A DNA stretch of 64,000 nucleotides, from positions 3,104,001-3,168,000 of the forward strand of contig CAXXMD010000003.1 of assembly GCA_963675755.2 (NCBI GenBank). Direction: 5' to 3'. The notes under the pieces are model-generated. The model had not been told where the DNA came from. It made no database searches and saw only the letters and a program-made list of their open reading frames with translations. How positions within the stretch are numbered: the stretch's first letter is position 1; the number at the start of each line of letters is the position of its first letter. The stretch comes from a bacterium (GTDB lineage Bacteria > Zhuqueibacterota > Zhuqueibacteria > Residuimicrobiales > Krinioviventaceae). The position numbers were made by a program, and so were the translations under genes. Shown piece by piece: positions 5,591-31,503 of this stretch.

Positions 5591-6070
5591 ATGGAATTAT
5601 TACAAAATGGTTTTGTATATCTGGTTCCGGTTCTGCTGCCTAACCTGATTTGGCTTTTTTTCTCAAATCATGATGAAATTGGTGAAGTAAAGGAAAGTCA
5701 AAAAACAATTTACAAGAATTTATCGATTCTTGAGAATGTTGGGCGCATTGGGATTTTTATTATACCCTTGTTTGGCAATGTTTTAATTGATCAATATTAC
5801 CCCTATTTTGCAATAATGCTTTTTATTGGATTATTTATTTATTATGCCGGCTGGATACGGTATTTTATTAATGAACGGAAACCAGAATATTTGTATTGTT
5901 CTTTATGGAATCTACCATATCCTCTGGCTGTAGCTCCTGTGTTTTATTTTATGCTATTATCATTATTAATTCTTTCAATACCTATGCTTCTTTTTTCTAT
6001 AGTGTTTGGGATTGCACATGTATTGAAAAGCAGGATAGATTATAATTTATTGCTGGATCAAAAAGAATAA
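5591..6070 (+). CDS. Hypothetical membrane protein
   Basis: 159 aa with several hydrophobic segments; tight operon spacing. Confidence 0.7.
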   Translation: MELLQNGFVYLVPVLLPNLIWLFFSNHDEIGEVKESQKTIYKNLSILENVGRIGIFIIPLFGNVLIDQYYPYFAIMLFIGLFIYYAGWIRYFINERKPEYLYCSLWNLPYPLAVAPVFYFMLLSLLILSIPMLLFSIVFGIAHVLKSRIDYNLLLDQKE

Positions 6071-6089
6071 AAAAAGTCAGGATGTAGTT

Positions 6090-7349
6090 ATGAATTCTCG
6101 TGATCGTATCCAATGTACTCTGTACAATAAAGAACCGGATATTCTGCCTGTTGATTTTGGTGGCGGGCCTGTAACCGGTATTGCTGTTCAGGTTGTGTAT
6201 CAGCTTCGGCAGAGATTGGGTTTGGACAATCCGGGAACTCCGGTTAAAGTAATTGAGCCTTATCAAATGCTGGGTGAAATCAAACCGGATTTGCAGGACG
6301 CATTGGGATTAGATGTGATTTCTGTAAATAACAACGGAACTATGTTTGGATTTGATCTGGTTGATTGGAAGGAATGGACTACTCCTGATGGAACGCCTGT
6401 ATTGGTGCCGGGATTATTTAATACACAAAAAGATGAGAATGGTGCTATACTTCAATATCCCAAAGGAAATACCCAATTACAGCCTTGTGCAAAAATGCCC
6501 AAAAGTAGCTATTTTTTTGATGCAATTGATCGTCAGTTGCCTATTGATGAAGAAACGCTGGACCCTAAAGACAATCTGGAAGATTTTTCTCTTTTAAAAC
6601 AAACGGAAATCGATCATTATAAGACAGAAACAAATCGTTTGTTTACCGAAACAGATAAAGCCATTTACAGCACTTTACCCGGAGTAAGCTTTGGTGATGT
6701 TGCTCTGGTACCGGGATTGTTTCTGGAGAATCCCAAAGGGGTACGTAGTGTTGAAGAGTGGTATATGAGCTCCTTAATTCGTCCCGATTATATCAAGGCT
6801 GTTTATGAACAGCAGACCGAGATTGCTTTGCAGAATTTGAAAACTTTGTATGATACTATCGGTAATAAAATTTCTGTTATTCAGATTAACGGTACGGATT
6901 TCGGAACACAGAATGGTCCTTTTTGCTCCAAAGCGCAATACCGTGACATGTATTTACCCTATCAGAAAAAACTAAACGATTGGATCCACGCAAATACCCA
7001 ATGGAAAACATTTATTCATAGCTGCGGGGGAATTTACCCCTTGTTGGATGAAATTGCAGAAGCAGGATTTGATATCTTGAATCCTGTGCAAAGTACTGCC
7101 AAAGATATGGAATTGGCACGTTTAAAAAAAGAATATGGAGATACCTTTGTATTCTGGGGTGGTGGTGTAGACACGCAGAATATATTTCCTTTTGGTACGC
7201 CAGAACAGGTTAAAGAAGATGTTAAACAACGAATAGAGATTCTGGGTGATGGCGGTGGATTTGTTTTCAGTACCATACATAATATTGTTGCCAATGCCCC
7301 CATTGATAATGTGTTGGCCATGTTTGAGGTGATTAAAACTTTTCGATAA
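6090..7349 (+). CDS. Uroporphyrinogen decarboxylase-family (MtaA/CmuA-like) protein
   Basis: MNSRDRI start; DFGTQ, HSCG, FWGGGVDTQ and GGGFVFSTIHNI motifs. Confidence 0.85.
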   Translation: MNSRDRIQCTLYNKEPDILPVDFGGGPVTGIAVQVVYQLRQRLGLDNPGTPVKVIEPYQMLGEIKPDLQDALGLDVISVNNNGTMFGFDLVDWKEWTTPDGTPVLVPGLFNTQKDENGAILQYPKGNTQLQPCAKMPKSSYFFDAIDRQLPIDEETLDPKDNLEDFSLLKQTEIDHYKTETNRLFTETDKAIYSTLPGVSFGDVALVPGLFLENPKGVRSVEEWYMSSLIRPDYIKAVYEQQTEIALQNLKTLYDTIGNKISVIQINGTDFGTQNGPFCSKAQYRDMYLPYQKKLNDWIHANTQWKTFIHSCGGIYPLLDEIAEAGFDILNPVQSTAKDMELARLKKEYGDTFVFWGGGVDTQNIFPFGTPEQVKEDVKQRIEILGDGGGFVFSTIHNIVANAPIDNVLAMFEVIKTFR

Positions 7350-8410: not shown

Positions 8411-8989
8411 ATGCTAAAAGCAATTGAAAATGTTGAACAATACCAGCAGGTTGCAGATAAAGAGAATTTTTATATTCTGGCGTTTTATTCAGACGCTTCT
8501 GAAAAAAGTAAACAGGCAATAAATGTACTGGATGATTTAAAGAATGACAATAGCGATACTCCGTTTTACTCAGTTAACGCTTCAACAGTCAAAGATATTC
8601 ATCCCCGGCTGGGTGTGAACAGTGTGCCAACTGTATTGGCTGTCAAAGACGGCAAGATCGTAAAGAATATTCAAGGATTGCAGAACCGCAATCATTATGA
8701 AATGTTGTTATATGATGCACCCGTTAAAAAAGATGGTACTGCAAAACCACGTCATTCTGTAACCGTTTACAGTACACCAACATGTTCCTGGTGTAACCGG
8801 TTAAAACAGCATTTGCGTCAACATAGGGTCATGTTTCGTGATGTTGATGTATCCAGAGACCAGCATGCAGCTCAGGAATTGATGCGACGTACCGGTCAAA
8901 CCGGTGTACCACAAACAGATATTGATGGTCAAATTATAGTAGGATTTGATCAAACACGAATCGATTCATTATTGGGATTAGCGAAATAA
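8411..8989 (+). CDS. Thioredoxin-like domain (no CxxC) fused to a glutaredoxin/NrdH-like domain
   Basis: N-domain with GVNSVPT cis-Pro loop; C-domain YSTPTCSWC...GQTGVPQTDIDG..IVGFD. Confidence 0.85.
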   Translation: MLKAIENVEQYQQVADKENFYILAFYSDASEKSKQAINVLDDLKNDNSDTPFYSVNASTVKDIHPRLGVNSVPTVLAVKDGKIVKNIQGLQNRNHYEMLLYDAPVKKDGTAKPRHSVTVYSTPTCSWCNRLKQHLRQHRVMFRDVDVSRDQHAAQELMRRTGQTGVPQTDIDGQIIVGFDQTRIDSLLGLAK

Positions 8990-12531: not shown

Positions 12532-13293
12532 ATGAAATTTCGCAATTTTACTTTTGTAGTATTGGCACTAATTTTCATCTCTGTTACATATGTAGCAGCG
12601 CAGGAACAAGAACTCCCTGATCCAAAGTTGACCGAGGTATGGGACCCGGTCCCCCCAATTGTAACTCCTGGTGAAGGTACAGCTGCCCCATCAGATGCTA
12701 TTGTTTTGTTTGACGGTACAGATTTTTCCAATTGGAAACATGCAGATGGCAAACCTGTTAAATGGTTTTTGAATAAGGATGAAGGTTGTATGACGGTTGT
12801 TAAAAAGACCGGTACAATTGAAACAAAACAAGAATTCGGTGACATTCAGCTCCATATCGAATGGCGTACCCCTGCAATTCCTGTTGGTCGTGGACAGGGA
12901 CGTGGCAACAGTGGCGTTTTCTTTCAAAAACGTTATGAACTGCAAGTGCTGGATTCATATCTGAACCAGACCTATTCAAATGGTCAGGCAGGAAGTATTT
13001 ATAAGCAATCTATTCCATTGGTTAATGCCAGCAAAGGTCCCGGTGAATGGCAAACATACGATGCTGTCTTTATTGCACCCCGCTTCAACGATGACGGCTC
13101 TTTGAAAACCCCAGGTTATATTACTGTATTTCATAATGGCGTGTTGATTCAGAACCATTTCGAAATACAGGGCCCTACAGAATTTCGTGGTAAACCCGAA
13201 TATAAAGCACATCCTCTTAAACAAGGAATTATGCTGCAAGATCATGGTAATCCAACAAGTTTTAGAAATATCTGGGTAAGAGAACTGGATTAA
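12532..13293 (+). CDS. Secreted DUF1080 (3-keto-glycoside hydrolase-like) protein
   Basis: Signal peptide; LFDG, GNSGVF, YELQVLD, GEWQTYD and LQDHG...FRNIW motifs. Confidence 0.9.
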   Translation: MKFRNFTFVVLALIFISVTYVAAQEQELPDPKLTEVWDPVPPIVTPGEGTAAPSDAIVLFDGTDFSNWKHADGKPVKWFLNKDEGCMTVVKKTGTIETKQEFGDIQLHIEWRTPAIPVGRGQGRGNSGVFFQKRYELQVLDSYLNQTYSNGQAGSIYKQSIPLVNASKGPGEWQTYDAVFIAPRFNDDGSLKTPGYITVFHNGVLIQNHFEIQGPTEFRGKPEYKAHPLKQGIMLQDHGNPTSFRNIWVRELD

Positions 13294-13300
13294 GTTTTTT

Positions 13301-13338
13301 AAACAGGCCATCAAATTTTTTGATGGCTTGTTTTTTTT
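13301..13338 (+). terminator. Intrinsic terminator
   Basis: AAACAGGCCATCAA...TTGATGGCTTGTTT plus T run. Confidence 0.85.
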
Positions 13339-13673
13339 GGGGGTTGTTGTGTAATTCATTGTACGGGTTGTAATTGTTAATTCGATTATATTTTCAATTC
13401 TTTATTGCAATAATTTAAATTTTTCCATAGTATATTAATATAGATTTCAAATTTGTCAATGTGTATCCAATATCAAGGGTGTTATACAATTTAATGGAAT
13501 GTCATAAATGTTGCCTCTGGACAATATTGTTTCAATCTGACTACCGACAACTATTGTGATATTCACAAATGGGCTATATTGAAATAGAATCTTTATTGTG
13601 ATAAATGCGTTATAATACAATATGGTTTAATGAAATTATCCCGGATGAATTTCCGGAATAATAAGGAGCGCAA

Positions 13674-14540
13674 GTGGATTTAAAAACGACTTTGTTTAGA
13701 TACCGTTTATTAATTATCACTGTTTTGGGTTTTTTTGTACTGATTCTTGTATCAATGCTTAACGAAATTTTGGATTTGCCGCATCTGCTTTTTAATCAAC
13801 CCGCAACGCCAATCAACAAGACCGAGTTTTTATTAGAAACGTTTATGCTGTTATGCTTTGGTTTTGTTATCAATGTCAGTGTTTTTATCTACTCTTATCG
13901 ATATAATCGCTCCAAGATTATGCTTATTCGATCATTGGAAGAAAAAGAATTTTTGCTCAAAGAAATTCATCACCGCGTCAAGAATAATCTGGCTTTGATT
14001 ACCAGCATTATCAACCTGCAGGAACGATCTGTTGATGATGAAAAATTTAAAAATATTTTGCAGGACCTGAAAAGCAGAATAACTTCTATAACGCTTATTC
14101 ACAAAAAACTATATAATTCTGATGATTTGAACACAGCCCATGCTGAAACCTATTTCCGGGAACTGCTTGAAGAAGTAACACAGATATCTGACAAATCGAT
14201 TGATATTCAAATGGATTTTGATAATATCCGGATTGATCAGAAAACACTCATTCCACTTGCAATTGTAACCAGCGAGCTTGTGACCAATGCCATTAAATAT
14301 GCTTTTCCGGATGAAGCCCATCCGCAAATCCGTATGGTGTTGAAAAATGGGAAAAAAAACTTTTTATTCAGCCTAGGGAATAATGGGGCGGGGCTGCCGC
14401 AGGATTTTTCAATAGAAAATTATTCTTCATTGGGCCTAACACTGGTGAGGCTGCTGACCAGCCAGATAGAAGGGGACCTGGAGATTGTAACCGAGCCACA
14501 TACGGAATTCAGAATCAGGATTCCGGTAGTGGGGGAGTGA
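13674..14540 (+). CDS. Sensor histidine kinase (HisKA_2 type), 2 TM, no partner regulator nearby
   Basis: EIHHRVKNNL H-box; ELVTNAIKYAF N-box; SLGL G2 box; GTG start after AAGGAG. Confidence 0.9.
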   Translation: MDLKTTLFRYRLLIITVLGFFVLILVSMLNEILDLPHLLFNQPATPINKTEFLLETFMLLCFGFVINVSVFIYSYRYNRSKIMLIRSLEEKEFLLKEIHHRVKNNLALITSIINLQERSVDDEKFKNILQDLKSRITSITLIHKKLYNSDDLNTAHAETYFRELLEEVTQISDKSIDIQMDFDNIRIDQKTLIPLAIVTSELVTNAIKYAFPDEAHPQIRMVLKNGKKNFLFSLGNNGAGLPQDFSIENYSSLGLTLVRLLTSQIEGDLEIVTEPHTEFRIRIPVVGE

Positions 14541-14706
14541 AAATATTGTTAAATATTATTTTTTGTTTAAAATTTTGTTAATTTTTATTAATATTTACGA
14601 GTTATGAAATAAATATCTTGACTTTTACGATAATATTTGCTAATTAAATACCAATCCTTGGGTCGTACAAAACTAAAATTTCAAATAAAATCTTAGGGGA
14701 TTTATT

Positions 14707-14997
14707 ATGAAAAAGATGAAAACTATTAGTCTTGTTCTATTAGTAGCTGTAGTTGTCTTTGGTGGGATTCATATAGTAAATATTCAAAGTGCAAATGCGA
14801 GTATCACACCCAATCCTTGTCGATTGTCAAATCTTTGCTCCGCAAGTGGCAATACATGTATTACTTGTTGGTGTGATGTGTATGGCGCTTGGAGTTGTGA
14901 ATGCGAGGACCCTGTTACTCTAAATCATTTTACTGTTGCGGAATATGACCCTGATTGTGATAGCCCGACGCATCCATGTTACCCTTGTCCAAATTAA
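14707..14997 (+). CDS. Small secreted cysteine-rich peptide (10 Cys in ~65-aa mature part)
   Basis: AGGGGA RBS; Sec signal ending ANA; C-x5-C-x6-C-x2-C-x-C-x7-C-x-C-x17-C-x6-C-x2-C. Confidence 0.8.
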   Translation: MKKMKTISLVLLVAVVVFGGIHIVNIQSANASITPNPCRLSNLCSASGNTCITCWCDVYGAWSCECEDPVTLNHFTVAEYDPDCDSPTHPCYPCPN

Positions 14998-15076
14998 TAA
15001 AGTGAATTAATTAAAAATGGCCCAAGGATTATTGATAATATATTTGTTTTCTGTTTGTGTTGCATAATAATCTATA

Positions 15077-15661
15077 ATGGAGAGAATAATGAAGAAATTT
15101 TCTTTTTCCAATTTGATTTTGAGTATTATTTTTATAATTATGGCATTTGAAATTATTTTTCTGAGTATACAAAATAAAAAGTTGAATGATCAATTAAGTA
15201 AATTAATTGGACATACTAGCGCTCAACCTGATATGGTTGTAGGGACAAAACTGGCTGATAGTTTATCTGTGAGCTTGGAATATGGAAATGTTGTTAACTT
15301 TGATGAAAAACATCCAAAATATTTAGTTATATATTTTTCAACAACTTGTAAGGCTTGTATAGAAGATGCTGAGACGTGGATGGATTTGTACGAGTATTTG
15401 GGAAAGAAGAACATTAGTATGTTTGGCATTTGTCAAGGTGAGCCGGATATAGTAAACGAATTTATTATAAAGAATAAACTAAAATTTCCTGTTGCTCCAG
15501 ATCCCACAAATGTTTTGCTAAAGAAATTTGGAATACATTCACTTCCAAGTAAATCTATGATTGATGAAGATAATATTGTCTTGTTTTATTCAAGGGGAGC
15601 ATCAGGTGAACGCGATTTGAAAGAATTAAAAAAGATTGTACCTGAATTGCAGGCAGGATGA
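15077..15661 (+). CDS. Membrane-anchored TlpA/ResA-like thiol-disulfide oxidoreductase
   Basis: N-terminal TM; YFSTTCKAC active site; FGIHSLP cis-Pro loop. Confidence 0.85.
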   Translation: MERIMKKFSFSNLILSIIFIIMAFEIIFLSIQNKKLNDQLSKLIGHTSAQPDMVVGTKLADSLSVSLEYGNVVNFDEKHPKYLVIYFSTTCKACIEDAETWMDLYEYLGKKNISMFGICQGEPDIVNEFIIKNKLKFPVAPDPTNVLLKKFGIHSLPSKSMIDEDNIVLFYSRGASGERDLKELKKIVPELQAG

Positions 15662-15664
15662 GAA

Positions 15665-16294
15665 ATGAAAAAAATAGCGATGAATGCTTTACTGGTCATT
15701 GTTTTGCTTGCGGTTTGTGTCCACTTTGTTATGCAGATCAATAGCAACAATAAAGTTTTGGCTGAAATTGATGATTCGCTCAAGCCCTTATCATATCAAC
15801 AACAAGTTGATTACATGAAGCAGGTGTTTGTCCGGGCAGACTCGTTTCGTTATATTAAATTCAGGGACCAGTTTTTTTATCATGTCTTTCAGGATACCGT
15901 TCCAGTTGGGTATGCTAAAATTATCGACAAGGACCTTGCATGTTCTACCTGTCGTGATGTGAGATATTTATGCGCCCTGGACAGTGCCTTGTGTGTTAAA
16001 GAGGTTGTTTTGATTAGTGATTTGGATCAAAAACGCATCTATGACAAAATACTCCATTTTGAAGATGGTGTAAACCGAGTGGTTGGGAAAAAAGTTTTTA
16101 ATATTGTGAATTTGTCTGATTTTATCTCTCAGTTTAAAAGTACTTTGCCTGGTGATAAAATCTTTAACGAGGATGCGGAGATTGATGTAATCAGTGGTGC
16201 TACTAAGACCAGTCACAGCATGTATGAGGGGATCAAAGAGTTTTTAGCAGAGGCTTCTTATTATTCAAAGCAATATTATGCTAAAAATATGTAA
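15665..16294 (+). CDS. Membrane-anchored FMN-binding-domain protein with an additional CxxC
   Basis: N-terminal TM; CSTC at 15941-15952; DVISGATKTS flavinylation motif at 16184-16213. Confidence 0.75.
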   Translation: MKKIAMNALLVIVLLAVCVHFVMQINSNNKVLAEIDDSLKPLSYQQQVDYMKQVFVRADSFRYIKFRDQFFYHVFQDTVPVGYAKIIDKDLACSTCRDVRYLCALDSALCVKEVVLISDLDQKRIYDKILHFEDGVNRVVGKKVFNIVNLSDFISQFKSTLPGDKIFNEDAEIDVISGATKTSHSMYEGIKEFLAEASYYSKQYYAKNM

Positions 16295-16319
16295 TTAAAT
16301 TGTATTTTTTAAAATGAAG

Positions 16320-16347
16320 TTGCCATGCACTTTTTTGTGCATGGCAA
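16320..16347 (+). terminator. Hairpin closing the three-gene cluster
   Basis: TTGCCATGCAC-tttttt-GTGCATGGCAA; no clear U tail. Confidence 0.6.
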
Positions 16348-16658
16348 TTGGGGAAAGATTTATCTCGTTATATTCATTTTCATAAAATGAAATATACTCC
16401 TAAATTAATATTTCAATCATTTTTATTCCAGAGTTATGTGAATAATGCAATTCCTGTCTATAATAAAATTAGATTTATATTTAAATTATTTGCTTTTTTG
16501 TGTTAAATTTTGTATTATTTCAAACTTGATTCCAAAATAAAAATATTGCAATTTTTTATGTTTGCGTTTGCGACACAGGGGTTAGTGTGTCTGAATGTAC
16601 CGGGAAAAGTGTGTTTATCTAATTATTCTTATTAACTCATAATTCGAGAGGGTGTATT

Positions 16659-17606
16659 ATGCGTAATTGTTTCATTTCATGTCTGTTACTAGTATTACTT
16701 TCAAGTGTAGTTTTTGGCAATGAACAGAAATTTGTAGATGATGTAGAGCAGTTTGTAGCACAATTGAATTCCCAGGAACAAGCATTTGAGAAACGCAGTA
16801 TTCAAAATCAAATGAATATTATTAATGAACGCCGAGTTCCTTATGCAATGATCTATGAGCAGACAGGATTGTTTACCTGGCAGCTGTTTTCAAATTGTTT
16901 TTTTGATTCAGATGTTGATACTACAACTACAGTAAACGTAGATATAGATTACAGACCCACAACAGATCAATTTACTGTAATACCCGCATATTTTACTTTT
17001 ACTTCAAAGCGTCCTTATGATTCATTGAATGATTATAAGGATTTTATGGTTGGTATTTTTCAGAGTGTAGGTACAGCTCATTCAGTATTAATTGATGAAG
17101 CAAATACCAGATATGGATTTGATGGCCATCATTATTGCCAGTCATTCTATTCCGGTACAACAAAGTTGGTTCTTGATTGTTACTTTGTATATGTTAATGA
17201 TGTTGCCTGTGCATTTTATTACATGACGGGTGACTCGTTTTATGACGATGCCTTGTATCAAATCTTTTTTGAATTGATACTTGATGTGGTCGAGTTTCAA
17301 CAGCCAAACGCAATCAATAACGAATCCTTGAAAAAACCGGTGAATTTTGACATGTCTCAAAATTACCCGAATCCCTTTAACGCTTGTACCCGGATCCAAT
17401 ATTCTGTAAATGAACCTACTGATGTAAAAATTGAGATTTTTGATGTCAATGGTAGATTAGTACAGACTCTGGTAGACAAGTTTCATTCCCAGGGACAATA
17501 TGACATTAGCTTTGATGCAAACGATTTGGCCAGTGGAGTGTATATTTACAGAATTTCTGATATGAACCATGCTTCCCGTGCACATCGGATGATCTTGGTG
17601 AAATAA
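16659..17606 (+). CDS. Secreted protein with T9SS/FlgD-like C-terminal sorting domain
   Basis: Signal peptide; QNYPNPFN...LASGVYIYRI. Confidence 0.8.
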   Translation: MRNCFISCLLLVLLSSVVFGNEQKFVDDVEQFVAQLNSQEQAFEKRSIQNQMNIINERRVPYAMIYEQTGLFTWQLFSNCFFDSDVDTTTTVNVDIDYRPTTDQFTVIPAYFTFTSKRPYDSLNDYKDFMVGIFQSVGTAHSVLIDEANTRYGFDGHHYCQSFYSGTTKLVLDCYFVYVNDVACAFYYMTGDSFYDDALYQIFFELILDVVEFQQPNAINNESLKKPVNFDMSQNYPNPFNACTRIQYSVNEPTDVKIEIFDVNGRLVQTLVDKFHSQGQYDISFDANDLASGVYIYRISDMNHASRAHRMILVK

Positions 17607-17655
17607 ATATAAAATTCAACGTGTCGGAGATCGCATTGCTAATCTCCGACACGAT
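17604..17655. repeat. 52-bp direct repeat, copy 1 (contains 12-bp hairpin)
   Basis: TAAATATAAAATTCAACGTGTCGGAGATCGCATTGCTAATCTCCGACACGAT; 51/52 identical to 18631-18682. Confidence 0.95.
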
Positions 17656-17714
17656 CTATTAATATTTTATGATCCCACCGAGCTTTTTATAAACTATAAT
17701 TTTGCAATAACATT

Positions 17715-18524
17715 TTAGTTATATTCTCTAATATAGAAATTTCCCCTGTCATTAATTTTTTCAATTTGTTTAATAGTCTTTTTGAGTGATTTTAAATTCG
17801 GTTCAAGTTTTTTATCATTCTTGTAGACAAAAGAAGATTTAACGCCTAGTGTAGAATATGCTTTTTCTACAAAAACCATTTTATTTTCAAGTTTAGAATT
17901 TGTAGGAAACGTATGTGCACCATAGTTTTTAAAAACATTTTCAATATCCATACTTTTTAGAGCAGTATATAATATTTTCAAGTGATTTCGTGTTAAAAAG
18001 AATATATATTGTTTTTCCAAATCCAAGGGAACCGTATCAATAGATGATCCTACATACAGCCCAGTTTGTCTCATTATATAAATAGTATCCTGTAATTTGT
18101 ATTTATCATTTCCCAATAAAATTTCATCAACATGAATAGAAAAGGTTGAACCAAATAGTGGATAATAGGTTTTTTTTACAGTATCATATACCGTAGAGTC
18201 ATATTCAACTTTAACTACTGTTCCCAATATTACAAAATCTGATTCAAGCGCGTTTTCTTTATAGTTTTTTCCACCTGCCAATTTATAAGCCAATTCTTTT
18301 AAATCAATTCCCATCTTTTTGAATTTTTTATGTTCATTGATATTGATTTCATGCTCATAAAAGCTTTCTGCAAATTTTTTGTCAATCTCTAGTGTTTTTA
18401 ATGCTTTTTCAAGAAAATCATTTTTGTGAACAGTATTTGTTTCAGACATATTATCCTGGCAAAATGAGACAGAATTTAAAAAAATAATGAGAATTGATAA
18501 AACGATAGATGTTTTTGTTTTCAT
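17715..18524 (-). CDS. Hypothetical secreted protein, AT-rich, between the direct repeats
   Basis: GGAG RBS, signal peptide, Lys-rich; SDFVILGTVVKV motif of unknown family. Confidence 0.75.
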   Translation of the reverse strand: MKTKTSIVLSILIIFLNSVSFCQDNMSETNTVHKNDFLEKALKTLEIDKKFAESFYEHEININEHKKFKKMGIDLKELAYKLAGGKNYKENALESDFVILGTVVKVEYDSTVYDTVKKTYYPLFGSTFSIHVDEILLGNDKYKLQDTIYIMRQTGLYVGSSIDTVPLDLEKQYIFFLTRNHLKILYTALKSMDIENVFKNYGAHTFPTNSKLENKMVFVEKAYSTLGVKSSFVYKNDKKLEPNLKSLKKTIKQIEKINDRGNFYIREYN

Positions 18525-18630
18525 TTATGACTCCCCGGTTGTACCCCGTTTGTATTCTTGTACCAAGGATCTCTGCCTTGGGATTATTTGTTTCTTGCCA
18601 CCCAGGTTTTAACCTGATTGAAAAAGTGAT

Positions 18631-18682
18631 TAAATATTAAATTCAACGTGTCGGAGATCGCATTGCTAATCTCCGACACGAT
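18631..18682. repeat. 52-bp direct repeat, copy 2
   Basis: TAAATATTAAATTCAACGTGTCGGAGATCGCATTGCTAATCTCCGACACGAT. Confidence 0.95.
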
Positions 18683-18692
18683 TGTTTTGTTA

Positions 18693-20171
18693 TTATCTCG
18701 ATAGTATCTTTTTCTGGTCGGCGGGGCGTGGCATAAAAAAGTCGTATTGACCGATACCGCATTCCTGAATCATATCGATGCAATATTCCAGACGTTTTAA
18801 TTCTTCTGCGTTACGATTGTTGGTACCCATGGCGAATTTACATCCTGCTGCTTTGGCTTTTTTGATGAATGTAGCACTGGGCACGCGGTAACGATCATTG
18901 ATCTCTATGGCAACATCGTTTTCCAATGCGGCTTTTATCACTTTATCCATGCGGGCATCGGTCCACAGTTCGTCATAGCGATCACGGATGATTTCGGGCA
19001 GTACCGTAGCATTGACATAAATGTCGATAGGTTCATCCTGCAATACCCCGAGGATTTTTTCCACATACATGTCCATCCATTTCTGTTCGTCATCAACCTC
19101 TACTTCATCTTTTATCCATACATGGATTCGTTTTCCGCGATGGTCGATAAAGGTCATGGCGTCGCTGAAGACATAATCGAATTTTGCAATGGCTTCCTTG
19201 CTGAACAGGTCCATCCATTCGCGGCCTTCGGCTTGCATACCCAGATACACCGGTTTGTCTTTCATGGATTCGATAAATTCGTAAATACCGGCATCATCAT
19301 GAATAGGAAAGTCGAGCCCGCAGTTGGGTGCAATACCGTACATGATACCGTCGCGCATGGATTGGGCCAGAGCCATATCCAGGGTAATGTCTTTTTTTAA
19401 ATGAACATGAAAGTCGATAACGGGATAGTTGTCATGGTTCATGTTGAGGAGTGTGGTATAGGTTTCGTCCACAACCGGGGTAACAATCTCACCGGGATCA
19501 GCATCGTCAGGTAACGGTTTAACCATAATGTTTTTATACATGGCTGTGCTGTTGGGATCGTGACACTGGAACGCAAAAGTCCCGCTTGAAAGTACGCGGC
19601 CCGGTTCACTGGGACGAACAGGATGTTCAGGCTCTACATAATCAGATACCAGCATATCGTTGATCCATACCTGAATACGGGGTACAACCACTTTGATACG
19701 CATGGTAAACCATTCATCATCACCAATAAACTGTTTAAAGGTATTGCGTACTGCATAGATACTGCCGGTTTTTTTGTATTCATACCAGGTGCCGTCTGCA
19801 CTGGGCTTTTGTGAATTGTTGACCTGTATTTCGTAACCATGGTCAGGCCAGCCATCCTGCTGATATTTTGAATGAACATAGATTCCGGAATTGGAATTGG
19901 CGCGAGCCATTACATCGGCCTTGAATTCAAAGTTTTTGAAATTGTGGTCCATGACCGGTCCATCGTAAAAGAGATGTGCGCGTGTACCGTTGCATACAAT
20001 GGCGCCGTTTTCGATGCGAGCCGATTCACTGTTTTCACTTATTTTCCAACCATCAAAAGATTTTCCATCAAACAGGGAAATCCAGTTTTTTGCATCAGGA
20101 TCACCGCATCCGGAGAAAAAAAACAAGAACGAAACTGACAACAAGAGGGGCAGGAGCATCCGGTATTTCAT
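18693..20171 (-). CDS. Lipoprotein: DUF1080 domain fused to a PHP-like TIM-barrel domain
   Basis: Lipobox FSGC; LFDG, NSGIY, YEIQV and FQCHDP motifs; C-terminal DFHVH and AIEIN. Confidence 0.8.
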   Translation of the reverse strand: MKYRMLLPLLLSVSFLFFFSGCGDPDAKNWISLFDGKSFDGWKISENSESARIENGAIVCNGTRAHLFYDGPVMDHNFKNFEFKADVMARANSNSGIYVHSKYQQDGWPDHGYEIQVNNSQKPSADGTWYEYKKTGSIYAVRNTFKQFIGDDEWFTMRIKVVVPRIQVWINDMLVSDYVEPEHPVRPSEPGRVLSSGTFAFQCHDPNSTAMYKNIMVKPLPDDADPGEIVTPVVDETYTTLLNMNHDNYPVIDFHVHLKKDITLDMALAQSMRDGIMYGIAPNCGLDFPIHDDAGIYEFIESMKDKPVYLGMQAEGREWMDLFSKEAIAKFDYVFSDAMTFIDHRGKRIHVWIKDEVEVDDEQKWMDMYVEKILGVLQDEPIDIYVNATVLPEIIRDRYDELWTDARMDKVIKAALENDVAIEINDRYRVPSATFIKKAKAAGCKFAMGTNNRNAEELKRLEYCIDMIQECGIGQYDFFMPRPADQKKILSR

Positions 20172-29725: not shown

Positions 29726-30403
29726 TCAAGTTGGTAATTCTTGTAAATGTTGTAGCTTTTCTAACCATTTGTTCAAGTAGTAACATTCATTTTTCATTCT
29801 GACCAAACTGATTTCTTGGGAGATCAATGGGCCATGATATGTCTTTTTGTAATGTGGGAAAATTGACTCTATCCTTTTTGATGGTGCTGTTTGCGGTCCG
29901 TCATTTATTTTTTCCGGTGAGTCAAAGTCGCTGCGAATTTGTTCAAGTTGCCTAGTTTGGCTTGGAGTAGCTTCTAACTCCCGAGCAATTATTTGAGGTT
30001 CAGTAAAAAGGTAGCCTTCAAATTCATGGACCATCAGGTTTGGGATGAATCTGGGATTGTTTATATCATTTTCCAGTTCTCGAAAAAGAGTGTCAACTTT
30101 AGTTTCCAAATCTGGATTGAGAGTCGATATGCCGGGGAAATCATTTGGTAGTCCATATAAATCCAGTAATGTGGTACAATATGCAGACTGGTCATTCAAA
30201 CATCTGACAATTTCTTTTCTGATATTAGTTTGGTAACCCGTTCTCGGATTAAAGCCGCCTTTACCCTTGCGTCCCAGTTGACGATTTGTAACTGTTAATC
30301 GTGGATAAAAAAATATATTGTAGTGATTAAATTCAGGAATTAGAACTCTTTTAACAAATGCTTCTTCAGTTTCACCTTCTACTACCACATTGATTCTGAC
30401 CAT
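29726..30403 (-). CDS. DUF4276-family (TOPRIM-like) protein
   Basis: ATG 30403 overlaps the ATPase stop (TAATG); VVEGETEE.FV, LDLYGLP.DFPG, HEFE and PE.IND...TAPSKRI motifs. Confidence 0.85.
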   Translation of the reverse strand: MVRINVVVEGETEEAFVKRVLIPEFNHYNIFFYPRLTVTNRQLGRKGKGGFNPRTGYQTNIRKEIVRCLNDQSAYCTTLLDLYGLPNDFPGISTLNPDLETKVDTLFRELENDINNPRFIPNLMVHEFEGYLFTEPQIIARELEATPSQTRQLEQIRSDFDSPEKINDGPQTAPSKRIESIFPHYKKTYHGPLISQEISLVRMKNECYYLNKWLEKLQHLQELPT

Positions 30404-31503
30404 TAAGGTCTTCCCCCTATAACATTTTTCTCCCACAATTCACCCATAGAATAATCTTCAAGCCAGTCTTTGAGTTCCTGTTCGTTACATCTTTTAAATT
30501 CTGATGCACCCTCAGAGTTTCGATCAACAACTATTATATCCTCCGGTTGAAAGTGATCAATCAGATAGGTTGATTGCGTAGAGACAATGACCTGTGTGCT
30601 ATTACTTTTTAATTTTAATATGTCCGCAAGCCTGGCCAAGGCATAAGGATGTAAACCCAATTCCGGTTCATCTAATATGATTGTTGCCGGCGGGTTGGGT
30701 TGTAAAAGTGCCGTGGCAAGGCAGATAAAACGTAATGTGCCGTCGGAGAGATGTCTCGCTGTAAAAGGGAAATCTGATCCTCTTTGCAACCATTCAAATT
30801 GTATCTTGTCTTCTTTATAGGGAATTGGGCGAAGTTTAAATTGATCGATAAATGGCGCAACCATTTGCACGGTTTTCAGTATTTTGTTATAGTGAACCGG
30901 ATTTTGTATTTGCATTGTAAATAAAAAAGCTGCCAGATTGCCTGCGTCATGATTTAGTTTTTCATTATCATTTATATATGTTTGACGTTTTACAGAAGCC
31001 GAATCGCTGGTGTCTTGGAAATGGTAGACAGTCCAACTTGAAATTGTTGGGTAAATATAGGATGCAATATCTTGTCTTTTACCATTGTTATATTCGTTTT
31101 TTAAATTTGACTCGACATTACCCATGCCAATACTATACCATTGGGGACTATGCCAAAATACACCAGCAAAATACATTGTTTCTTTCTCGAAGATTAAGCT
31201 ATTGGTATCGGTAGGTTCTAGAGTGAAGCCATATCCATTTACTTTAAAATATAATTTACCATTAAAAGTTTTAGTTACTTTTGGCCCTAAATATAAAAAC
31301 TGATCTGCCCCGCCTTTTTTGTTAACGAAATGTTGCAGTCTTTCTTTAACAATGTTGTTTAATAATTCAAAGAATTCAATGAAATTACTTTTACCTGCAC
31401 CATTGGGGCCAATGAGAATATTCAAATTGTTTAATTTAAAATTTTCCAGGTTTTTTATTGATTTGAATCCTGAAATTGTAATTTTATCTAAATGCTCTGA
31501 CAT
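30403..31503 (-). CDS. AAA_21/AAA_15-type ABC ATPase
   Basis: GFKSI; Walker A GPNGAGKSN; signature LSDGT; Walker B IILDEPELGLHP; STQS. Confidence 0.9.
   Translation of the reverse strand: MSEHLDKITISGFKSIKNLENFKLNNLNILIGPNGAGKSNFIEFFELLNNIVKERLQHFVNKKGGADQFLYLGPKVTKTFNGKLYFKVNGYGFTLEPTDTNSLIFEKETMYFAGVFWHSPQWYSIGMGNVESNLKNEYNNGKRQDIASYIYPTISSWTVYHFQDTSDSASVKRQTYINDNEKLNHDAGNLAAFLFTMQIQNPVHYNKILKTVQMVAPFIDQFKLRPIPYKEDKIQFEWLQRGSDFPFTARHLSDGTLRFICLATALLQPNPPATIILDEPELGLHPYALARLADILKLKSNSTQVIVSTQSTYLIDHFQPEDIIVVDRNSEGASEFKRCNEQELKDWLEDYSMGELWEKNVIGGRP

Follow-up and report, generated by a model that had tools for sequence, protein, structure and literature searches.

A CxxC-bearing RnfG-like flavin-domain protein paired with thioredoxin-fold partners, and a secreted cysteine-rich peptide as its candidate client

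Bacteriocin operons can encode, next to a secreted disulfide-bonded peptide, a thiol-disulfide oxidoreductase of their own, e.g. BdbB for sublancin, and these BdbB-type enzymes are quinone-linked membrane proteins of the DsbB/VKOR type. A flavin-based solution is found in QSOX, whose architecture is a fusion of thioredoxin (Trx) and Erv domains. The known bacterial disulfide routes, i.e. DsbB and VKOR, to which passages of a 2026 preprint (bioRxiv 10.64898/2026.03.05.709764) add MauE, deliver electrons to quinones via polytopic membrane proteins; the same passages report that MauE from Calditrichota is a functional DsbB substitute and that about a fifth of the surveyed species lack DsbB, VKOR and MauE. 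The closest published bacterial idea to what is described below is that of the predicted DsbD-DUF3570-thioredoxin-like-DUF4266 'hybrid thioredoxin-like/flavinylation' clusters, set out in sections of Meheust et al. (eLife 2021, PMC8238504). Here we analysed a stretch of 64,000 nucleotides (hereafter the window; contig CAXXMD010000003.1 of assembly GCA_963675755.2, positions 3,104,001 to 3,168,000) from a bacterium of the Krinioviventaceae, and we describe within it a cassette of three genes encoding a secreted Cys-rich peptide, a membrane-anchored TlpA/ResA-like redoxin and a membrane-anchored flavin-domain protein with a CxxC motif.

The conserved core of this cassette is the pair made of the CxxC-flavin domain and a thioredoxin-fold domain, and this pair recurs in a non-random manner. 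In the phylum of the window, 167 species genomes were searched by profile at E<=1e-5 and all matching loci were inspected: 26 genomes gave a match, 10 of the CxxC type and 16 RnfG-like without CxxC. A redoxin gene lies immediately upstream of the flavin-domain gene in the source genome (G000, 6.48 Mb, 98% complete), in its congener and sister genome (G001), in G051 and in G056 (where the redoxin is cut by the contig end), and the order peptide-TlpA-flavoprotein is kept with short gaps in G000, G001 and G051. Five other genomes (G134, G127, G130, G135 and G126) encode a fusion of ~375-400 aa in which a thioredoxin domain (CPHC) at the N-terminus is joined to a C-terminal 'C..CHDAHFW ... DAVT[GAS]AT' domain, and which aligns with the family in hhalign (95.9%) with CxxC and motif in register. 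At G128 no redoxin is in view; the flavin-domain gene overlaps NHL/DUF5128 propeller genes (3-9 Cys each) and the contig ends 700 bp on. Additionally, at least eight of 401 sampled Planctomycetota genomes carry the CxxC type (30 loci inspected, 24 further matches lying outside this set). At six of these loci the flavin-domain gene is followed by that of a ~800-aa protein with CPxC; among the three such partners scanned against Pfam, two match Thioredoxin_4, DSBA or Thioredoxin_2 and one has no match. G271 encodes a single fusion composed of a membrane anchor, Redoxin (CPAC), CxxC and FMN_bind (hhalign 98.8%), and no thioredoxin-fold partner was found at the inspected locus of G321. Altogether, a thioredoxin-fold partner with CxxC accompanies the flavin domain in 16 of the 18 CxxC-type genomes, from two phyla (10 adjacent and 6 fused), a count that leaves out the metagenomic members P0003-P0005, P0012-P0015, P0018 and P0022 and contig L012.

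By alignment and predicted structure, the flavin-domain protein belongs to a family, rare but coherent, within the FMN_bind/RnfG superfamily. A phmmer search over 1.84 billion representatives returned 24 proteins at E<=0.001, about half of them multi-FMN_bind proteins matched via the C-terminal motif only, and a word-index search retrieved only the protein itself, the G001 copy (90% identity) and the metagenomic P0003 (49%). Relatives score over the cut-off of Pfam FMN_bind (PF04205), i.e. P0003 with 26.6, P0012 with 30.8 and the L008 protein with 27.8 bits. In an alignment of 14 sequences (the full-length relatives and two taken from genomes), the CxxC (C93, C96) is invariant in 14/14, Dxx[ST]GA[ST] is kept in 13/14 and no cysteine other than these two is invariant. 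The AlphaFold2 (AF2) model built on the family alignment has a mean pLDDT of 80; its five best Foldseek matches in the PDB are RnfG chains (9eri_G, 8rb9_G and 7zc6_G among them), with a probability of 1.00, E values of 1.8e-4 to 3.6e-4 and TM-scores of ~0.5, and NqrC follows. An assignment to RnfG or NqrC proper was rejected on NCBIfam scores of 14.9 bits for RnfG (cut-off 205) and 14 bits for nqrC (cut-off 144); the neighbours are peptide and redoxin genes, and true RnfG loci (L010, L044) look different.

Homology further predicts that the CxxC sits on the flavin-capping 'GYGG' loop of this superfamily. As P0016 and P0021 show, G-Y-G-G-D is the start of the Pfam FMN_bind model. In P0012, D93 takes model position 5, so that C88-P-V-C91 covers model positions 0-3, and the family profile pairs 'CsvCeD' with 'sGYAGE' in the A. 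woodii RnfG (9eri_G). In the AF2 secondary structure, residues 93-96 lie in the loop between strands 79-89 and 99-106, the first two of the domain. According to passages of PMC10339131, a tyrosine of the loop between strands 1 and 2 stacks on the isoalloxazine in SaFMN3-D2 and CbFMN4-D1, and the equivalent loop of NqrC is described in parts of PMC10339131 and PMC4348036 as squeezing the flavin ring. In the same phylum, ordinary RnfG genes retain 'GYSS' and lack a CxxC; together with the loop mapping, this suggests that a cysteine pair took the place of the flavin-capping residue in the family. By analogy, flavin-dependent disulfide oxidoreductases work with this kind of geometry: Erv/QSOX oxidases and thioredoxin reductase share the disulfide-beside-flavin arrangement proposed for the window protein. 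Contact between the CxxC and the flavin, like flavinylation itself, is what we infer from the aligned sequences. A complex prediction of the TlpA domain and the flavin domain with flavin mononucleotide (FMN) gave a score of 0.00, which is evidence neither way.

The redoxin has a hydrophobic N-terminal anchor and a CKAC motif, as do membrane-anchored redoxins of the TlpA/ResA/CcmG type, and it matches Pfam Redoxin with 43.7 bits (3.2e-11, cut-off 26.6) and AhpC-TSA over its cut-off (3.8e-11). An upstream GGAG and the length of the database copy P0030 (190 aa) place its likely start at 15089. The best NCBIfam match is ResA with 49.3 bits (cut-off 170), StoA reaches 25 bits (cut-off 210) and there is no match to the MauD model; since these scores are far below the equivalog cut-offs, the protein was not classified as a ResA, StoA or CcmG equivalog. 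The CxxC is kept as CQAC in the G001 orthologue and reads CPAC in G051. A word-index search with the TlpA-like protein at the strict threshold of E<=1e-10 matched only its own copy.

The peptide precursor begins with Sec-like features (MKKMK, a hydrophobic core, then SANA with S as the next residue), and its acidic mature part comprises 65 aa with exactly 10 Cys. A crude filter (signal peptide and at least 8 Cys) is passed by only four of the 20,208 open reading frames (ORFs) of 50-130 aa in G000, two of them from the peptide family, which argues that the peptide is not a chance ORF. A second paralogue, with 8 Cys in its mature part, is encoded on contig C1 of the same genome (C1:91371-91682). 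In G001, a tandem array upstream of the TlpA-flavoprotein pair contains one frameshifted copy and two intact paralogues; in G051, a signal-peptide ORF with 8 Cys takes the same place in the gene order, and metagenome contig L012 encodes a homologous 10-Cys peptide, with W-x-C-x-C-[DE]-D-P and Y-x-V in common. Two Trp are conserved in 4-5 of 6 peptides, and are thus not invariant. The word-index protein search with the peptide matched only the two G001 paralogues, and the protein atlas search (best score 0.82) led to clusters without an informative lead. The AF2 model (pLDDT 68) predicts three strands, at 50-56, 62-67 and 74-80, that bear CxC motifs; it has no Foldseek match at E<=0.001 and a best VIA-align Z of 4.0, i.e. 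no likeness among solved structures. A cluster for a ribosomally synthesized and post-translationally modified peptide (RiPP) was also considered and rejected, as the peptide has a Sec-type signal instead of a leader and none of the 52 window ORFs of at least 90 aa encodes a modifying enzyme.

Comparison of the two congeners shows how unevenly the cassette has diverged. The signal peptides are identical at 30/31 positions and the mature parts at 28/59; identity amounts to 52% for TlpA, 90% for the flavoprotein and 95% for the downstream protein of the type IX secretion system (T9SS). At synonymous sites, the mature peptide and TlpA are saturated and divergence elsewhere ranges from 0.05 to 0.5, i.e. 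TlpA and the mature peptide diverge together, and the flavin protein and the signal peptide do not follow them. This looks like a 'mature peptide plus TlpA' module that was replaced, or that deeply diverged, between conserved flanks; simple positive selection was ruled out, pN being below pS. The stretch 14562-14801 matches two places in the G001 locus L003 at 90% identity (blastn): the 5' region of the peptide gene and its signal-peptide codons are conserved, and are duplicated in G001. The peptide is acidic and hypervariable, keeps its signal sequence and occurs in tandem copies, all of which points to a polymorphic secreted effector, inhibitor or signal; the peptides would represent a new disulfide-rich scaffold in which the cysteine framework is conserved and the loops vary.

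Peptide genes were also seen in another setting. At C1:90129-92777 of G000, the paralogue lies between two paralogous 350-aa lipoproteins with a CarboxypepD_reg-like N-terminus and a propeller-like C-terminus, and a lipoprotein-peptide-lipoprotein arrangement is likewise inserted upstream of the cassette in G001 (L003:4553-7242). This lipoprotein family has at least nine further copies in G000, and no Cys-rich peptide was found beside them at the four loci checked (seven copies).

The peptide, TlpA-like and flavin-domain genes form one predicted co-transcribed unit (Table 1). They are co-directional, and the flavin-domain gene starts 3 nt past the redoxin stop. GC content is 0.29-0.37 over ~13000-18700 and 0.40-0.47 in the flanks. 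Promoter-like hexamers occur upstream of the peptide gene without enrichment over shuffles. In a scan of the terminal inverted repeat, the T-run was found only on the minus-strand side, which makes the repeat a candidate terminator only. The initial annotation of this region, made from the letters and a list of ORFs, had read it as an AT-rich co-directional unit closed by a hairpin, encoding a Sec-exported peptide of ~65 aa with 10 Cys, a membrane-anchored TlpA-like CKAC protein and, 3 nt later, an anchored protein with CSTC and DVISGAT. Coordinates, low GC content, motifs, signal features, Cys count and the Redoxin match all bear it out, the model and Foldseek add the RnfG/NqrC fold, and the CxxC, whose lack of conservation it had named as grounds for refutation, proved invariant in the aligned family. 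As regards the hairpin, the 11-bp stem is real and its T-run is on the minus-strand side only. That annotation had also listed DsbB, DsbD, ApbE and RiPP-modifying enzymes as missing from the window. A Pfam sweep of its 52 ORFs of at least 90 aa (6 at E<=1 and 46 at E<=1e-5) agrees, with no DsbB, DsbD, ApbE or radical-SAM/RiPP enzyme among them; ApbE is encoded elsewhere in the genome, twice.

Table 1. Features of the cassette, with positions given in the window
Feature	Position	Strand	Details
Upstream region, putative promoter and ribosome-binding site	14562..14706	+	AGGGGA 7-12 nt before ATG
Secreted Cys-rich peptide precursor, 96 aa	14707..14997	+	signal peptide residues 1-31 = 14707-14799
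Membrane-anchored TlpA/ResA-like thioredoxin-fold protein	15089..15661 (ORF opens 15077)	+	CKAC 15347-15358
Membrane-anchored RnfG/NqrC-fold FMN_bind protein	15665..16294	+	CSTC 15941-15952; DVISGAT 16184-16204; T180 16202-16204
Perfect 11-bp inverted repeat after the flavin-domain gene	16320..16347	.	6 G-C pairs in stem

We propose that this unit is a self-contained extracytoplasmic flavin-dithiol relay with a local client peptide, a reading that, taken whole, has about an even chance of being right. Its parts differ in strength: that a flavin-dithiol relay is encoded is highly probable, that the peptide is its lineage-specific client is reasonably probable, and a net oxidative direction stands slightly above even. 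The flavin-domain protein would be tethered outside the membrane, where ApbE would attach FMN to Thr180. With the CxxC on the flavin-stacking loop, disulfide and flavin could exchange two electrons directly. The next exchange would be between the CxxC and the CKAC of the TlpA-like protein, whose gene is translationally coupled and whose role would be to handle the substrate, i.e. the presumably co-transcribed, hypervariable 10-Cys peptide. The relay would thereby introduce and proof-read five disulfides, and electrons would exit via FMN to O2 or another acceptor. Gene order, motifs, predicted fold, conservation and recurrent adjacency or fusion are what the sequences show, and from there we infer the exchange between TlpA and the CxxC, the client role of the peptide and oxidation as the net direction; at modest odds, oxidation with proof-reading is the direction we favour.

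Several findings were counted for oxidation. The stand-alone cassettes inspected encode no membrane protein for electron input (DsbD/CcdA, NapH, PepSY or cytochrome), two of the three scanned Planctomycetota partners match DsbA-type models and the fused forms carry CPHC. The 98%-complete G000 genome yielded no match to DsbB, VKOR, DSBA or Thioredoxin_4; it encodes two ApbE proteins (PF02424, over cut-off), neither in the window, and a heme-copper oxidase, from which it follows that the organism meets O2. For a flavinylated FMN_bind protein, passages of PMC10339131 give an Em of -184 mV and reoxidation by O2 at 1.2 per s. The cassette might even represent an undescribed class of bacterial extracytoplasmic sulfhydryl oxidase, a convergent counterpart of QSOX supporting oxidative folding independent of DsbB, VKOR and MauE, and recruited here to mature hypervariable, cystine-ladder-like peptides with conserved signals, possibly polymorphic antagonistic or signalling molecules; we hold this fuller version as tentative and somewhat doubtful.

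Set beside described systems, the window protein shares with RnfG/NqrC and other ApbE-flavinylated FMN_bind proteins its fold, the N-terminal anchor, a C-terminal Dxx[ST]GA[ST] motif where the last helix begins and the presence of ApbE in the genome. It differs from RnfG/NqrC in lying outside an rnf/nqr operon, in having the CxxC in place of 'GYGG' and in being paired with a thioredoxin-fold partner instead of a membrane complex. With QSOX, Erv and Ero1 it would share the order of transfer, i.e. from a dithiol to a thioredoxin-fold CxxC, a flavin-proximal CxxC, the flavin and O2, and the fusions of thioredoxin and flavin-CxxC domains among its relatives (G271 and the five genomes of its own phylum) mirror the Trx-Erv fusion. 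Nevertheless, the flavin module of the window is RnfG-like alpha/beta with a predicted phosphoester-linked FMN, whereas QSOX has a helical Erv domain with FAD. An Erv/ALR helical FAD domain was rejected, with no Erv family in the Pfam matches and an RnfG-like fold; the resemblance is functional only, and predicted. The MauE/MauD system, which acts with the disulfide-rich MauA, likewise combines a thioredoxin-like helper and a membrane-linked redox protein for a small multi-disulfide secreted protein, and the setting in which passages of the preprint place MauE as a DsbB substitute (bioRxiv 10.64898/2026.03.05.709764) is that of G000, where no DsbB or VKOR was found. Yet MauE is polytopic, has a CXC motif, is presumed to use quinones and is encoded elsewhere in G000, whereas the cassette uses a flavin domain. 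Compared with BdbB-type systems, no DsbB/VKOR-type protein is present in the window cassette. Finally, unlike the hybrid clusters as described in sections of the eLife 2021 paper (PMC8238504), the cassette has neither DsbD nor ApbE and carries its cysteine pair inside the flavin domain; no Pfam match to DUF3570, PF13899 or DUF4266 was obtained for the flavin-domain, TlpA-like or peptide genes.

A number of observations weigh against the proposed oxidative relay, and several of them suit other explanations. The same relay may run in reverse: an envelope redox protein or quinol-linked complex would reduce the flavin, which would reduce the CxxC and then TlpA. This would create an extracytoplasmic analogue of the thioredoxin reductase/thioredoxin couple that isomerises peptide disulfides or keeps the peptide reduced, e.g. 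for metal binding. TlpA/ResA/CcmG-type redoxins are usually reductants, which favours reduction, and the best NCBIfam match of the window redoxin is ResA. In addition, all five fused relatives directly follow, and at L089:241-10107 (G134), L090 (G127) and L091 (G126) close, a MobA-FdhD-FdhE-like-molybdopterin oxidoreductase-4Fe4S operon, with a porin gene next; in at least G134, G127 and G130, and not in G126, an NrfD gene separates the fusion from the 4Fe-4S gene. These loci suggest that a formate-dehydrogenase-like enzyme is connected to thiol redox chemistry in the periplasm, and such an operon could feed low-potential electrons into the fused module, i.e. a reductive use. G000 also encodes a MauE of 140 aa with a CGCF motif (C3:2559420-2559806; L050:1010-1914), whose gene is translationally coupled to that of a membrane-anchored rhodanese-like protein, the two being a candidate general disulfide-forming pair. 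A general oxidant may therefore already exist, so that the 10-Cys peptide may lack an isomerase, not an oxidant. The pathway had initially been called DsbB/VKOR-independent, a label that stands as far as no DsbA, DsbB or VKOR was found in the genome and that needs qualifying for MauE. We nonetheless judge the reversed relay unlikely: the inspected stand-alone cassettes have no component for electron input, both DsbD_TM genes of G000 lie away from the cassette, the CPHC of the fused forms and the DsbA-type matches in Planctomycetota point to oxidation, and an even Cys count with a predicted beta-sheet core fits structural disulfides.

Other explanations concern the peptide or the flavin. The flavin/thioredoxin pair could be a general envelope thiol-redox module, with the peptide as a mere neighbour or one client of many, other clients being Cys-containing propeller lipoproteins or nearby T9SS cargo. 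Our screen for secreted Cys-rich ORFs, which used one crude filter and had the fused loci L089-L091 outside it, found them beside 4/6 stand-alone loci (window, G001, G051 and L012), at 0/8 Planctomycetota loci, where the pair occurs without them, and not at G128, where the flavin-domain gene likewise lacks them and overlaps propeller genes. Homologues without Cys-rich ORFs are among the refutations that the initial annotation had named, and this one was therefore found in part, at the distant loci. Its three protein identities and the recurrence of a TlpA-type or thioredoxin-fold partner hold, as does the recurrence of Cys-rich ORFs at G001, G051 and L012, so that its interpretation is supported in part. 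The C1 paralogue of the peptide has no flavin/thioredoxin pair beside it either, and large T9SS paralogues flank the G051 and G056 cassettes. Set against these points are the order kept in G000, G001 and G051, the extreme rarity of such peptides in G000 (4/20,208 small ORFs) and the joint divergence of TlpA and mature peptide between congeners, and we regard the general module as improbable. Another option is modelled on the mau system and its small cross-linked subunit: the peptide would be such a subunit of a periplasmic propeller enzyme of the methylamine or quinohemoprotein amine dehydrogenase type, and the TlpA and flavin proteins would be MauD/MauE-like biogenesis factors. Propeller-type 350-aa lipoproteins do flank peptide genes in G001 and on C1 of G000, NHL/DUF5128 propellers lie near the family in L012 and G128, and the two Trp are widely conserved. 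However, the window cassette has no propeller gene, the other lipoprotein copies checked stand without a peptide, TlpA has no MauD match, the Trp are not invariant and an enzyme subunit would not be expected to vary as much as the mature peptide, which makes this option very remote. Equally hard to sustain is that the CxxC binds a metal or Fe-S cluster, or that the flavin-domain protein is not flavinylated. Its FMN_bind score of 21.6 bits is just under the Pfam cut-off of 22; four of the five fused forms of its own phylum, and G404, depart from [ST]GA[ST] (TAAT, TSAT or SRAT), and the CxxC region of P0012 has a weak, non-significant resemblance to IscU (E 1.3). Yet only two Cys are invariant and Dxx[ST]GA[ST] is present in 13/14 sequences, and dithiol exchange is favoured over metal binding because every partner carries a CxxC on a thioredoxin fold.

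Further points against the proposed relay with its client peptide concern the breadth of the evidence. Three of the six ~800-aa Planctomycetota partners were assigned by size and CPxC motif alone. G000 and G001 are congeners, and the group of G051, G056 and G128 and the five fused forms represent one GTDB family, so that few independent lineages are involved. On contig L012, which has the same neighbours, the flavin gene contains an in-frame TGA and the thioredoxin-like gene an in-frame TAA and no CxxC. An alternative genetic code was rejected there, and gene decay or assembly error is more likely because the stops are mixed. The same contig carries fragments of an ABC exporter, a fragment of an RND pump and a transposase (L012:1-2360 and 6035-6784), which points to a degraded or error-prone region.

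The system is built from known domains in a new combination. Full-text literature, the large supplementary tables of the eLife 2021 study excepted, yielded no description of a CxxC-bearing FMN_bind protein with a thioredoxin-fold partner, and the words cysteine, disulfide, thioredoxin and thiol are absent from the mSystems 2024 paper on flavinylation. The flavin/thioredoxin pair may thus be an undescribed way to make or edit extracytoplasmic disulfides. If so, the ApbE/FMN_bind flavin module would constitute a fourth route, oxidising or reducing, and two classes of extracytosolic electron carriers, i.e. flavinylated and thioredoxin-like, would be joined within one domain.

The surroundings of the distant relatives and of the window cassette provided additional observations. 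In the operons preceding the fused forms, an in-frame stop, which may mark a selenocysteine, divides the molybdopterin oxidoreductase (with a Tat signal) into parts of 187 aa and ~803 aa. Planctomycetota partners (L008:5659-7953; L082:3587-6016) combine an N-terminal match to the NCBIfam 'UshA-like (seleno)protein', with a C-x-C motif (PCDCP), and a DsbA-like thioredoxin domain; in L008 an NHL-repeat protein is encoded on the strand opposite to the partner. In the vicinity of the G128 family member, we found a 62-aa ORF (L007:5311-5499), which presumably resembles the N-terminus of a radical-SAM peptide maturase, and, ~6 kb upstream, a 91-aa ORF with 5 Cys and no signal peptide (L045:10966-11241). 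Both ORFs, which lie among five NHL/DUF5128 propeller genes, may be what is left of a different system for peptide maturation. In the window itself, the low-GC island of the cassette also holds a 269-aa signal-peptide ORF without family match (17715-18524, minus strand), which is absent at the syntenic place of G001 and is thus an insertion relative to that genome. A 192-aa thioredoxin-glutaredoxin fusion (8411-8986, plus strand), unrelated to the cassette, is encoded just upstream of a Cpn10 gene. Finally, a DUF4276 gene adjoins that of an AAA_21/AAA_15 ATPase at 29729-31503 (minus strand), and pairs of DUF4276 and an AAA ATPase are often seen in candidate defence loci.

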